A DNA stretch of 58,353 nt from an uncultured Alphaproteobacteria bacterium (GTDB lineage Bacteria; Pseudomonadota; Alphaproteobacteria; RF32; CAG-239): contig CALXPK010000006.1 of assembly GCA_944390265.1 (NCBI GenBank), forward strand, positions 1-58,353, read 5' to 3'. Each line of letters starts with the position of its first letter. Position 1 is the stretch's first letter. The notes beneath the pieces were generated by a model. That model searched no databases. It was not told the origin of the DNA and worked only from the letters and a program-made list of their open reading frames with translations. A program made the translations under genes and the position numbers. Below, one piece after another: positions 6,747 to 10,743 of the stretch.

Positions 6747-7164
6747 TCATTTTTCAGGATATAAATTGACATTGACTTCTTCATCTAAATAATACATATC
6801 GCCGGTCAAAGGGTCGATAATCAAATAGCCGATTAAACCGCCGATGAGGATATTTCCGGCATAATACCAGCCGCTCACGTGCCAATCTATAATGGTTGTT
6901 TGGGTTTTGTAGCCGTCTTTGGAAGCAATCACGGTATATTTTTGTGGGTCAAAATAGCCGCCGGCCGCCGTTTTAAGGTTAACTGTGGTTGGGGTTTGCC
7001 CTTCAAAAATGGTTTGTCCGTATCTATCCAAAATTTTGATATCTACTTTTTCCAAATTGGCCTTGATAGGCACGGTTTGCGAATTTTCACGCATCACCGT
7101 GGCACAAGAAGCAAGTATTGCGGTAAAAACACCGCAAAAAAACAAATAAAACAGTTTTTTTCAT
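6747..7164 (-). pseudogene. Lipoprotein gene with a +1 frameshift in an A7 tract right after the start codon (pseudogene, phase-off allele or sequencing error)
   Basis: RBS AAAGGA precedes ATG at 7164; ATG-A7-CTG is out of frame with the 132-aa ORF; with A6 it reads MKKLFYLFFCGVFTAILASC, a lipoprotein signal with a LASC lipobox; the body has a WY..GNILIGGLIGYLIIDPLTGDMY glycine-rich segment. Confidence 0.7.
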
Positions 7165-7190
7165 CAGAACATCCTTTGTTTGAATAAATA

Positions 7191-7392
7191 AAACAAAACC
7201 CACCGAAAAAGGTGGGCGGATGTTCGAAAACCGTTCATAGATAAAGACGGCCCGGCCTATTTGGCACAAAGCCTTATTCAGCCGACATCCGTCCGTGACA
7301 GAAGTCGGCATATTATTTATGAGTCGCTATATACAAGCGACTATCTATGAATAGGGTTTTCGACGCCCTAACGCTCATCTCTAAGCGTCAAC
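7191..7392 (-). ncRNA. Highly structured leader RNA, C4-antisense/ash-like, ending in a terminator
   Basis: Long-range IR TCGAAAACC/TTCATAGATA (7224-7243) with TATCTATGAA/GGTTTTCGA (7342-7363); internal hairpins at 7281-7309, 7322-7342 and 7369-7390; CCCACC/GGTGGG hairpin (7199-7216) plus U tract; TATAAT at 7398-7403. Confidence 0.55.
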
Positions 7393-7430
7393 AAAAGATT
7401 ATAAGGGAAATATAAAAAAGTAAAGTTTTT

Positions 7431-7868
7431 TTATTTTAAACCGAGTTCTTTATGAAAATATTTCAAACTGCAATACTCAAGCAAAGAATTATCATCTATC
7501 TTATTTTCATAGCGTTTTTTATATATTTTGATAAAAGTTTTAACTTTTTGCATAACAACATATTCTTTGCCCAAGAAAAAACGATAATCTTCACGACGAA
7601 TTGTTGGGTTTGTGATGGAATTAATATATTTGTTTCTGTTTTCATCAGAAATAACAACAGCTTTTGTAAAGTCAAGTCCTCCGTTTGTATGTGGAACGCG
7701 CATAACATATCTGTTATATTTGTTAAAATTAGAACGCAAGGGAACGGCAACCAAAATATTATCAATCTCACAAACAGAAAAACAATAAGGACGTTTGTCC
7801 TTAATCAAAATTTGTTCACATTCGGCATAGTCTGCATAAAATTGTTCTGTAAGAAAATGAAATTTCAT
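7431..7868 (-). CDS. tenpN: Type III toxin-antitoxin endoribonuclease toxin, TenpN family
   Basis: FLTEQFYADY...KRPY...AVPLRSN...GLDFTKAVVI...SLKYFHKELG matches the TenpN pattern; preceded by a repeat array and terminator. Confidence 0.85.
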   Translation of the reverse strand: MKFHFLTEQFYADYAECEQILIKDKRPYCFSVCEIDNILVAVPLRSNFNKYNRYVMRVPHTNGGLDFTKAVVISDENRNKYINSITNPTIRREDYRFFLGKEYVVMQKVKTFIKIYKKRYENKIDDNSLLEYCSLKYFHKELGLK

Positions 7869-7880
7869 AAAAAAATACCT

Positions 7881-7912
7881 AAAAAAATCAATACCCCTAA
7901 AAGGGGTATTGA
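7881..7912 (-). terminator. Terminator between the antitoxin repeats and the toxin gene
   Basis: TCAATACCCCT-AAA-AGGGGTATTGA perfect hairpin followed by T7 on the minus strand. Confidence 0.85.
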
Positions 7913-7926
7913 ATGTAGTAGTAAAT

Positions 7927-8028
7927 CTGTTTGAGCTTTTTTTATATTATCCTGCTCGCGGCTCTGCGAGCATTACTCCGTTTGAGCTTTTTTTATATTA
8001 TCCTGCTCGCGGCTCTGCGAGCATTACT
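7927..8028 (-). ncRNA. tenpI: Type III antitoxin RNA array (TenpI-like), two repeats with 51-nt period
   Basis: 7929-7977 is identical to 7980-8028; unit AGUAAUGCUCGCAGAGCCGCGAGCAGGAUAAUAUAAAAAAAGCUCAAAC has stem UGCUCGC/GCGAGCA, and loop GAGC can pair with downstream GCUC (H-type pseudoknot). Confidence 0.85.
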
Positions 8029-8038
8029 ACATATAATA

Positions 8039-8067
8039 TATGTAACATAAAAAAAGAAAAAAGTCAA
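8039..8067 (-). promoter_or_regulatory. Probable promoter of the type III TA locus
   Basis: TTGACT-N17-TACATA preceded by TGn; the -10 match is imperfect. Confidence 0.4.
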
Positions 8068-8072
8068 TATAA

Positions 8073-8885
8073 CTATAACCCTTTCTTAATTTCCACCACC
8101 ACCGGCACATGGTCGGACGGACGCTCACCGGCGCGCCAATCTTTCAAAATTTTGTAGCTGACCACGCGGTCTTTGAGGTTGGGTGAAACCCAAACATGGT
8201 CCAAACGCCGCCCTTTATTGTTGGTCTGCCAGTTGGGGTTGCGATAGCTCCACCAGGTGAAAATCTTTTCCGGCTCGGGGTGAAATTCACGTGCAATATC
8301 CACAAAATTAAGCGAGGCTTTAAGGCGGTTCAGGCGTTCCACCTCAATCGGCGTGTGTGATACGATTTTTAAAAGCTGTTTGTGATTCCACACATCATTT
8401 TCATAAGGAGCCACGTTAAAATCACCGCAAAGCAGCATTTTTTTGTTTTTAAGCTCGCTTTTGTGCTGCTCAAAGTATTCGGATATATCATCCATAAATG
8501 TCAGCTTGTGCGCAAAGGAAAGATTCTCTATCGGGTCGGGAATATCGCCGCCCGCCGGAATATAAATATCGTTGATTTCAATATCGTCAAACACGCATGC
8601 TTTGATATGGCGTGCGTCATGCTTGCCGACCCAGTCGCAACGTGCCACATTTTGCAACGGCTCTTTGCTCAAAATCGCCACCCCGTTATAACCGGCCATG
8701 CCGTAAAGCGCAATGTTGGGGTATCCCAAGGCACGAATGTCCTCAAAGGGAAAATCTTCTTCTTTGGCTTTCACCTCTTGCAGGCAAATAATGTTCGGAT
8801 TCTCGGTTTCAACCAGTTTTTTCAGCGCCTCCATGCGGATTCGGATGGAGTTGGCGTTCCATGTGGCGAGTTTGAATGTCGTCAT
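8073..8885 (-). CDS. xthA: Exodeoxyribonuclease III
   Basis: ATWNANSIR, CLQEVK, YNGVAILS, CGDFNVAP, FTWWSYR, GRRLDHVW and PSDHVPV motifs. Confidence 0.96.
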   Translation of the reverse strand: MTTFKLATWNANSIRIRMEALKKLVETENPNIICLQEVKAKEEDFPFEDIRALGYPNIALYGMAGYNGVAILSKEPLQNVARCDWVGKHDARHIKACVFDDIEINDIYIPAGGDIPDPIENLSFAHKLTFMDDISEYFEQHKSELKNKKMLLCGDFNVAPYENDVWNHKQLLKIVSHTPIEVERLNRLKASLNFVDIAREFHPEPEKIFTWWSYRNPNWQTNNKGRRLDHVWVSPNLKDRVVSYKILKDWRAGERPSDHVPVVVEIKKGL

Positions 8886-9524: not shown

Positions 9525-10448
9525 TTAAGCGTTGCGAGCTTTGAAAATGCCATTTTCAAAACCTTGAATTTCTTTGTTGGTTTCCGCCATTTCCAAGCGT
9601 TTTTCGGTGAGGGCGGCATATTCTTTTTCTCTTTCGATTCCAATATAGTTTCGATTCAGTTTTTTTGCAACCACCGAAGTTGTGCCCGAGCCGACAAACG
9701 GGTCAAGAACAACATCACCCTCGTTGCTGGAAGCCAAGATAAGTTTGGCAATCAGCTTTTCCGGCTTTTGGGTGGGGTGGTTGGTATTTTCTGGCATCGA
9801 CCAGAAGGGAATGGAAATATCGGTCCAAATGTTGGACGGGTGGGTCAGGCGGGTTTTGTGTGTGCCGTCATCAACCCAGTCTTTAGGTTGGCCGTTTTTA
9901 TCGCGATAAGGCGCAATCACGGGGCGTTGAATTTTCACCGCATCCAAATTGAAGGTATAATCTTTGCTTTTGGTAAAAAACCAAATATCTTCAAGGCAGT
10001 TTTTCCAGTTGTTGAGCGCGCCGCGGCCTTTTTCCCGCTCCCAAGAAATGCGGTTTTGCAAAAGAAAATATTTTCCCGCCACTTCCGGAATGGCAATCGA
10101 GGTCTTCCAGTCCGCGCAAATATAAATCGAGCCGTTTTCTTTGAGGAGCCTTGCCGTTTTTTTGAGCCATTTATCCAGCCATTTTTTATATTCTTCCAAG
10201 CCCATTTCTTTGAAAGTTGAGCCGGAAAAATTTTTGGTCAGATTGTATGGCGGGTCAACAATAATCAAATCAACCGAAGCCTCAGGCAACAAATCAAGCG
10301 CTTTGAAGGTGTCTTGCCACAAGGTCTTGTTCAAGACAAAATCCAAAGAAACCCGTGCCGAAATTTTAAGCGCTCTTTTAGCATAAGCATTAATCTCGGC
10401 CTTGGTCAGTTCAATGGTTTTGTTGCGGGGGGCTTTGTCTTTTTTCAT
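9525..10448 (-). CDS. Orphan site-specific DNA methyltransferase (N6A/N4C, beta class)
   Basis: DPPYN catalytic motif precedes HPTQKPE and VLDPFVGSGTT SAM-binding motifs; no adjacent endonuclease. Confidence 0.92.
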   Translation of the reverse strand: MKKDKAPRNKTIELTKAEINAYAKRALKISARVSLDFVLNKTLWQDTFKALDLLPEASVDLIIVDPPYNLTKNFSGSTFKEMGLEEYKKWLDKWLKKTARLLKENGSIYICADWKTSIAIPEVAGKYFLLQNRISWEREKGRGALNNWKNCLEDIWFFTKSKDYTFNLDAVKIQRPVIAPYRDKNGQPKDWVDDGTHKTRLTHPSNIWTDISIPFWSMPENTNHPTQKPEKLIAKLILASSNEGDVVLDPFVGSGTTSVVAKKLNRNYIGIEREKEYAALTEKRLEMAETNKEIQGFENGIFKARNA

Positions 10449-10461
10449 GGAAAAAAACGAA

Positions 10462-10743
10462 TTATTCTTCGCCAAATTTGTTGTTAACCAAATCGGTAAT
10501 GGCTTGCAAGGCTTCTTTGGCTTGTGCGCCGGAGCAGTTAACTTTGATGGTGGTGCCTTTGGAGGCAGCCAGCATCATCAAACCCATAATCGAGCAACCG
10601 CTCACGGTTTGGCCGATTCTTTCAACTTCAACTTCGCAATCAAACGGCGCCACGGTTTTTACAAAAGCGGCAGCGGCGCGTGCGTGCAAACCTTTTTTAT
10701 TTTGAATTTCAAGTTCGGCGGTCAGAACATTATCATCAGACAT
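10462..10743 (-). CDS. ptsH: Phosphocarrier protein HPr/NPr
   Basis: GLHARAAA (His15) and SIMGLMMLAA (Ser46) motifs. Confidence 0.93.
   Translation of the reverse strand: MSDDNVLTAELEIQNKKGLHARAAAAFVKTVAPFDCEVEVERIGQTVSGCSIMGLMMLAASKGTTIKVNCSGAQAKEALQAITDLVNNKFGEE

Follow-up and report, generated by a model that had tools for sequence, protein, structure and literature searches.

What is the short AT-rich segment that lies beside xth in the genome of an uncultured gut alphaproteobacterium, and does it encode a working toxin-antitoxin pair? The segment is part of a contig stretch of 58,353 nucleotides (CALXPK010000006.1, assembly GCA_944390265.1), which we term the window. A preliminary description had proposed a complete TenpIN-like type III toxin-antitoxin locus here, with pseudoknotted RNA repeats as the antitoxin. 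Read on the minus strand from 8067 to 7431, a TTGACT hexamer is followed by two tandem 51-nt repeats, a terminator and an open reading frame (ORF) of 145 aa. Every element of the earlier proposal is present, the promoter in part only, and the AT-richness is plain from a GC content of 29.7% in the cassette versus 43.5% in the window. We consider it highly probable that the locus is a complete tenpIN (type III) toxin-antitoxin cassette, carried on a horizontally acquired insertion of about 670 bp and acting by the mechanism proposed below. The match of the toxin to its family model, its ToxN fold, the active-site residues and the covariation of both pseudoknot stems all uphold the assignment. 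The family and fold of the toxin, the conservation of its active site, the architecture of repeats and terminator, the pseudoknot covariation and the insertion status were computed directly.

The ORF encodes a TenpN toxin. It matches the NCBIfam TenpIN equivalog with 103.1 bits against a curated cut-off of 90 and covers 141 of the 141 profile positions. In a genome-wide search with the same model the locus scored 102.5 bits and was the only one of its kind in the 1.47-Mb genome. On the CptIN model NF047359 the toxin reaches only 17.8 bits with a cut-off of 90 and does not qualify as a CptIN member. Nor does it belong to ToxIN at the sequence level, although the fold is shared. An AlphaFold2 model built on a 13-sequence alignment (predicted local distance difference test, pLDDT, 84.6; predicted template modelling score, pTM, 0.81) contains a long helix at residues 102-121. 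When this model was aligned exhaustively to 48,161 chains with VIA-align, the best four matches were all type III toxins. The top match is the ToxN of B. thuringiensis (4ato; Z 12.0, 3.3 Å, 135 residues aligned), followed by AbiQ (4glk, Z 11.1), the E. coli ToxN (7d8o, Z 10.7) and CptN (4rmo, Z 9.3). After the type III toxins the scores fall to MazF, Kid and CcdB with Z of 5.5 or less. The ORF is thus related to the ToxN fold, as had been presupposed.

The residues expected at the active site are conserved. A41, P43, R45 and a C-terminal YFHKE are invariant in the 13-sequence alignment, and S46 is replaced by Thr in three distant homologues. The segment A41-V-P43-L-R45-S46 was matched to P53-L54-R55-S56 of the TenpN solved by cryo-EM through the shared motif, not by direct alignment; in that toxin the exchanges R55A and S56A are reported to abolish toxicity (PMC13682666). 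Between the genome of the window (G000) and its congener G004, tenpN shows 6 synonymous and 5 non-synonymous codon differences, which gives a ratio of non-synonymous to synonymous change (pN/pS) of about 0.2, calculated from small numbers.

The second component is the repeat RNA. Tandem Repeats Finder reports 7929-8028 with a period of 51, 2.0 copies and 100% matches, and a direct repeat search gives two 51-nt copies (7926-7976 and 7977-8027) with one mismatch, a tail position that is the sole difference between them. The two near-identical repeats of the earlier account are thereby confirmed. Each of them forms the 7-bp stem UGCUCGC/GCGAGCA in both the minimum-free-energy and the centroid structure, and the 176-nt leader folds with a z of -6.27, as well as which none of 200 shuffles folds. 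The sequence also holds the elements of a pseudoknot, namely a GAGC loop and an A7 run followed by GCUC. Both units match the full 52 positions of the Rfam family RF02925, "6A RNA", well above its gathering score of 41.2 (scores in Table 1). The AGAGC loop, the A-run and the downstream GCUC are common to the Rfam family and the window repeats. The Rfam entry types 6A as "Gene; sRNA" (small RNA) with a single hairpin, leaves its function unstated and gives neither a pseudoknot nor a link to tenpN.

We took 24 units from 18 loci by their Rfam coordinates and aligned them. Across both pseudoknot stems 230 of 230 cells are standard pairs, and compensatory changes occur in 7 of 11 pairs (5 of 7 in stem 1, 2 of 4 in stem 2). 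None of 500 shuffles equals the observed covariation, and when the partners are slid by 1-3 columns only 27-41% of the cells pair. For stem 2 the loop and downstream strands vary together as GAGC/GCUC, GAAC/GUUC and GGGC/GCCC; a fourth form, GUGUA/UACAC, is found out of register at one locus (L021). The covariation of stem 2 is independent of how the units were retrieved, because this stem is absent from the Rfam model, while the count for stem 1 is biased towards the structure because stem 1 belongs to the model used. The anatomy that results is that of an H-type pseudoknot: stem 1 has 7 bp and stem 2 has 4 bp, the first loop is a single A, and the second, of 16 nt, ends in A7. This bears out the stem and loop complementarity first noticed in the sequence.

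Two other statements of the preliminary description have to be revised. It had called the two-repeat array minimal; however, Table 2 of Blower 2012 (PMC3401426) lists for tenpIN a mean repeat number of 2.2 (1.9-3.0), a mean repeat length of 50.9 nt (39-57) and a mean toxin length of 164 aa (70-259). Repeat length and number in the window lie on the family means, and two repeats are therefore typical. It had also considered the antitoxin a possible new variant, whereas both units fall into the existing 6A family. Its expectation that ordinary annotation would miss the antitoxin holds in one respect, as the Rfam name is silent on antitoxins, and fails in another, as the toxin has a name in NCBIfam and the RNA a family in Rfam. 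At nine plasmid homologues of the toxin the deposited annotation reads "hypothetical protein" eight times and is missing once.

Between repeats and toxin gene lies the terminator, which had been described as perfect and which the terminator scan confirms. Its stem includes 5 G-C pairs, it is the strongest hairpin in both the leader fold and the repeat search, and one relative (L016) carries a compensatory change within the stem. The region holds 2 terminator-like sites, compared with 0.4 +/- 0.7 in shuffles. Two copies of a 51-nt repeat, a terminator and a toxin gene on the same strand lie inside the ranges published for tenpIN, to which the promoter would be added as a predicted element. What stands of the promoter claim is the -35 hexamer, visible by eye and conserved in relatives; a consensus scan did not call it. 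The 17-nt spacer has a TGn at its end, and the -10 hexamer is weak, with a position 6 that is not T. The toxins of the four aligned loci are 53-97% identical to the window toxin, the spacing from TTGAC to the first repeat is kept, and the hexamer aligned to the -10 is TATATA in two of them (L015 and L016). A transcript that starts about 7 nt after the -10 would have only about 4 nt ahead of repeat 1. An alternative -10, TATATT at 8040-8035, was dropped since it lies 21 nt from the -35 and is too distant.

Table 1. Features of the tenpIN cassette and their positions in the window.
Feature	Position	Strand	Basis and remarks
Whole tenpIN cassette	7406..8076	-	about 670-bp insertion relative to the empty site of congeners
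Putative -35 element TTGACT	8062..8067	-	TTGAC invariant in 4/4 aligned control regions; function predicted
Putative extended -10, TGT + TACATA	8039..8047	-	TACATA at 8044-8039, 17 nt after the -35; predicted
tenpI repeat 1 (6A RNA unit)	7977..8028	-	Rfam RF02925, 55.2 bits; tandem-repeat searches; covariation
Repeat 1, stem 1	8023-8017/8010-8004	-	
Repeat 1, stem 2	8015-8012/7987-7984	-	
Repeat 1, A-rich loop	8003-7988	-	
tenpI repeat 2 (6A RNA unit)	7926..7977	-	Rfam RF02925, 57 bits; covariation
Repeat 2, stem 1	7972-7966/7959-7953	-	
Repeat 2, one-nt loop	A7965	-	
Repeat 2, stem 2	7964-7961/7936-7933	-	
Repeat 2, A-rich loop	7952-7937	-	A7 at its end
Intrinsic terminator element	7881..7912	-	11-bp stem, 3-nt loop, T7; terminator scan, scan coordinates 7912-7888
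Weak Shine-Dalgarno-like AGG	7878..7880	-	9 nt 5' of ATG; read from sequence, putative
tenpN toxin gene	7431..7868	-	145 aa, ATG start; NCBIfam NF047358; predicted active-site motif P43-L44-R45-S46

Does the 6A RNA belong to tenpN beyond this one locus? Among the 20 loci whose toxins are closest to that of the window (34-97% identity), 16 have 6A immediately upstream in the same orientation, and two of the four others have no upstream DNA in the locus. Among the next 20 (29-39% identity) it is found at two. From the difference between near and farther loci, the 6A model covers the antitoxin of a single TenpN subclade. The ten 6A matches in five whole genomes are without exception tandem pairs at the tenpN locus. 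We also sampled 151 genomes by taxonomy and not by tenpN content: 6A occurs in nine and TenpN in nine, these are the same nine genomes, in each of which the two share a contig and a strand, and the other 142 have neither. Since the genomes are related to one another, these counts are not independent. Four of the nine carriers (G073, G188, G157 and G093) have a split, truncated or stop-containing tenpN with upstream 6A units that are still recognisable, and in these four the decay of the toxin seems to have come ahead of that of the antitoxin. The motif was probably first described in the supplement of Weinberg 2017. A literature search found no text that names RF02925 or the 6A RNA motif; supplements lay outside this search, so the link may already have been published. 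The available text of the Weinberg 2017 main article and of the Nadig 2025 survey makes no mention of 6A or Rfam in a tenpIN context. From its sequence associations, the Rfam 6A RNA can be interpreted as the antitoxin repeat of this TenpN subclade.

The cassette is a horizontally acquired, low-GC insertion of about 670 bp beside xth. In six congeners (G001, G002, G007, G009, G010 and G012) the flanks 6747-7405 and about 8080-8885 are only 14-34 bp apart. The cassette is present in G000 and G004 only, that is in 2 of the 13 genomes of the genus and 2 of the 41 relatives searched. The left junction is sharp (7405/7406). The right one falls within the final xth codons, where the edge can be placed to about 4 nt only and the cassette shares the last codon and the stop codon with the gene; the xth product ends in KKGL* in the window, in KKN* in G004 and in KKG* at empty sites. 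Between G000 and G004 the cassette is 97.0% identical, compared with 87.7% for the adjacent lipoprotein gene and 84.3% for a neighbouring repeat element, which indicates recent transfer. None of the 79 other genome loci shares the xth or lipoprotein flanks. The nearest toxin loci come, by their record titles, from metagenome-assembled genomes of uncultured gut proteobacteria and alphaproteobacteria, in agreement with the alphaproteobacterial chromosome of the preliminary description, and relatives of the toxin at 26-44% identity are found in nine small-plasmid records. The stretch is present in public DNA runs (20 rows from 11 studies, mostly chicken-gut metagenomes). Contigs from four runs span the left junction in X1, X2 and X6 and the right junction in X1 and X2. 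None of these contigs skips the cassette and no empty-site allele was seen, an absence that these short contigs do not prove. A 17-nt direct repeat at both ends (7408-7424 and 8051-8067; 82%) was considered as the trace of an attachment site; it is A-rich and of low complexity and is not relied on.

Around the cassette lie xth, lolA, an adenine methyltransferase, an OmpR-type response regulator and a porin-like ORF without an NCBIfam match. The methyltransferase is adenine-specific (9525-10475, minus strand, 1.5 kb from the cassette) and has partial similarity to CcrM (126 bits, cut-off 830); no restriction partner was noticed among the window ORFs listed. Beside the cassette, the intergenic stretch 7146-7371 is a multi-copy element with dozens of congener matches at 71-86% and two further copies in G000. 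It contains several hairpins, and one run has a much higher depth there; within it, 7206-7300 gives sub-threshold Rfam matches to sRNA-Xcc1 (35.1 bits, threshold 53) and to C4 antisense RNA (24.9 bits, threshold 45). G004 has an extra element between the tenpIN promoter and xth, with terminal inverted repeats of about 24 nt, an internal tandemly repeated motif and duplicated target flanks of about 17 nt. The assembly breaks inside this element (L014 and L015 at the end of C17, L013 at the start of C19), which by its sequence looks like an insertion sequence or a transposon.

How might the cassette work? RNA processing, the 2:2 stoichiometry, toxicity, neutralisation and phage defence are all proposed by analogy with the studied members of the family. 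A single promoter would drive a short transcript with the two 51-nt tenpI repeats. The strong terminator would end most transcripts and occasional read-through would yield the tenpN mRNA, so that the RNA antitoxin would be in excess over the toxin. Each repeat would fold into its H-type pseudoknot with the 16-nt A-rich loop laid along stem 1. TenpN, a predicted endoribonuclease of the ToxN fold with an Arg-Ser active site, would process the precursor to units and would be inactive as long as the single-stranded tails of two units occupy its active-site groove. The complex is most likely a closed ring of 2 protein and 2 RNA molecules as in enterobacterial TenpIN, and two repeats would correspond to one ring. 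If the supply of antitoxin collapses, either by a transcription shut-off in phage infection or by loss of the cassette, free TenpN would cut cellular and phage RNA and cause growth arrest, with abortive infection or addiction as the outcome. The preliminary description had gone as far as an active anti-phage module. This may be expected from the family, in which three coliphages plated less well on E. coli when it carried the tenpIN locus of P. luminescens (PMC3401426).

A link to phages is also seen on the viral side. We scanned IMG/VR with an exact-match pattern for the 6A core and obtained 27 loci, 12 of which have a TenpN frame immediately downstream. Among the other 15, 13 form 6-7 of the 7 stem-1 pairs, using the strand that the pattern had left unspecified, and the same 13 are single units above the Rfam threshold (44.8-68 bits), their stems intact and covarying. 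These are L106, L107, L110-L114, L116, L120-L122, L124 and L127. The remaining two (L108 and L118), with 5 of 7 stem-1 pairs and no Rfam match, were rejected as chance matches to the pattern. About nine distinct sequences are represented among the 13, as L111 and L127 as well as L112 and L116 are identical as printed and the pairs L106/L113 and L107/L121 are very similar. Several of the solo units have their own promoter and terminator, and the genes downstream of them encode phage repressor-like proteins, integrase, endolysin, tRNAs and PHROG families of unassigned function. A search for TenpN across all 13 records found none, while two positive-control records scored 123.6 and 153.7 bits; two of the 13 records are estimated to be 100% complete, one with direct terminal repeats. 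A tblastn search of the INPHARED phage collection returned no match. Unannotated ORFs that follow the solo units of L120 and L122 were considered as divergent toxins and rejected (hhalign probability 0.1%; no toxin matches in NCBIfam or PHROG). L110 is a one-repeat, toxin-less derivative of the lineage of the window cassette. Its homology to the window control region begins at the -35, includes the terminator and reaches as far as the start-codon position. The single repeat differs from the window repeat at 4 positions, and ATG GAA TAA stands at the tenpN start. As a separate observation, DUF3800-I and DUF3800-XI RNAs, which are orphan Rfam motifs, lie less than about 1 kb from 6A/tenpN loci, on a phage contig (L106, 1752-1832) and on an Erysipelotrichales contig (L053, 3064-3111).

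The toxin-less tenpI (6A) units of phages could be natural RNA antitoxin mimics that disarm TenpN of the window's subclade. We put this forward tentatively, as a plausible reading that we slightly disfavour; the solo units may instead be what deletions have left behind, or may pair with a toxin not yet recognised. Where the Nadig 2025 survey turns to viruses, it deals with tenpN-carrying phages only (PMC12283969). A parallel is the pseudo-ToxI of phage PhiTE (PMC3475682), a phage-borne type III antitoxin RNA without a toxin, which has the same layout as the solo 6A units. It concerns ToxIN, and the comparison with the solo units, which are candidate mimics only, is one of layout.

Several observations weigh against our interpretation of the window locus as a functional tenpIN cassette. 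Pfam gives no match for the toxin ORF and no ToxN-type family at E <= 10, and PADLOC gives no match either. Sequence-only searches of the PDB were not significant (CptN at E 0.073; ToxN at E 0.09 with the 13-sequence profile), and Foldseek returned nothing at E <= 0.001, its top three rows being CptN, ToxN and ToxN at E 0.011-0.035. The promoter consensus scan of the region called no promoter and the -10 is weak. Expression and processing are predicted from the sequence; no RNA run is among the public runs listed for the stretch. Exactly 2.0 repeats would yield one or two fully processed units, depending on where TenpN cleaves. A single repeat failed to neutralise the toxin of P. luminescens (PMC3401426); in the enterobacterial system either repeat alone did so (PMC13682666). 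Phage defence in the family was seen for one distant member in a heterologous host. Finally, the neighbours are housekeeping genes and the surroundings are therefore not a defence island.

Other explanations of the locus are less likely. A working tenpIN pair might be kept as a selfish addiction module that spreads horizontally and is retained because its loss frees the toxin, with no real phage protection for the host. A tiny, stand-alone, low-GC insertion amid housekeeping genes fits this, as do its patchy occurrence in 2 of 41 relatives, the 97% identity between two species with flanks of 84-88% identity, the unrelated contexts of the 79 other loci and the decayed copies in four of the nine carriers of the taxonomy-selected sample. 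Moreover, Blower 2012 saw no phage resistance with the cptIN loci that were put to the test (PMC3401426). However, the toxin-less 6A units on phages, among them two genomes estimated to be complete, are explained most easily if TenpN harms phages, and the P. luminescens system aborts coliphages (PMC3401426). The 13 viral contigs with solo 6A and the P. luminescens result give the phage link indirect support. Addiction and defence are also mutually compatible, and we consider a purely selfish module unlikely. Far less probable is an inactive relic, in which ORF and repeats look intact and yet the toxin is non-toxic or the operon silent. The weak -10, the missing promoter call and the lack of an RNA run would agree with silence, and family relics with split or truncated tenpN near 6A do exist in the four carriers mentioned. 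But the window ORF is of full length and exceeds the equivalog cut-off over the whole profile, its catalytic residues are intact, the pN/pS against G004 is low, the repeats are identical but for one tail position, and -35, terminator and spacing are kept in relatives.

That the repeats are a trans-acting sRNA which only happens to lie next to the ORF would be in line with Rfam, which lists 6A as sRNA only, and with the solo units on viral contigs that have no toxin gene. We regard such a coincidence as extremely improbable. It would have to account for the location of ten out of ten 6A matches at tenpN loci in the five whole genomes, for the sampled genomes, where all nine with 6A and none of the 142 others carry tenpN, and for the position of 6A upstream of tenpN at 16 of the 20 nearest loci, while the repeat structure itself fits the solved tenpI architecture (PMC13682666). 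The locus is thus an intact and ordinary member of the tenpIN family.

It adds a tenpIN with near-perfect repeats from an uncultured chicken-gut alphaproteobacterium to a family in which over 700 members are predicted and a single structure has been solved, which is useful for annotation and unsurprising. The chief interest beyond the window is the identity of the 6A RNA and its toxin-less phage copies. With 6A interpreted as the antitoxin of one TenpN subclade, a ready-made covariance model for finding tenpI is at hand; in the 2025 survey tenpI was curated by hand (PMC12283969). The covariation lends support to a tenpI pseudoknot that had previously been modelled by cryo-EM at 3.9 Å. The toxin-less phage units are testable candidates for natural RNA-based anti-defence, and if they are indeed mimics, 6A would serve bacteria as an antitoxin and phages as a widespread counter-defence RNA, with the window cassette as a live target in this arms race.

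Among the known systems, ToxIN and AbiQ (2XDD, 4ATO, 7D8O, 4GLK) have no significant sequence similarity to the window toxin (E 0.09). ToxI also differs in its reported 36-nt repeats in 5.5 copies, its triangular 3:3 complex and its balanced loops. These toxins are nevertheless the best structural matches (Z 10.7-12.0) and follow the same operon logic. CptIN from E. rectale (4RMO) likewise has a toxin of the ToxN fold (Z 9.3 to the window model), and its antitoxin is described with a similar pseudoknot topology, an A-rich loop with A-minor contacts and a 2:2 ring (comparison in PMC13682666). Unlike the window, however, cptI repeats measure 40-48 nt (Blower 2012), and the window toxin stays far below the CptIN cut-off (17.8 versus 90 bits). 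The closest relatives are the TenpIN systems themselves. The Nadig 2025 survey reports 722 TenpN homologues, some of them alpha-proteobacterial, and sorts tenpI arrays into types with identical and non-identical repeats (PMC12283969); the window array is of the identical-repeat type. In the enterobacterial TenpIN, solved by cryo-EM as a closed ring of 2 protein and 2 RNA molecules at 3.9 Å (Nadig 2026, PMC13682666), the repeats are reported to be non-identical and undetectable by Tandem Repeats Finder, whereas those of the window differ by one mismatch. The third position of the active-site triad is Asn47 in the window and His57 in the solved toxin, and the hosts differ as well, an uncultured gut alphaproteobacterium here and an enterobacterium there. 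The toxin sizes are close, with 145 aa in the window and 143 and 153 aa in the studied systems. The solved tenpI is described, in accord with the window RNA, with a stem 1 that exceeds stem 2 in length, an L1 of a single nucleotide and a long L2, rich in adenosine, along stem 1 (PMC13682666). The window cassette thus shares with TenpIN the equivalog match, the PLRS motif, the order of putative promoter, two repeats of about 51 nt, terminator and toxin, and the H-type pseudoknot of its antitoxin RNA.

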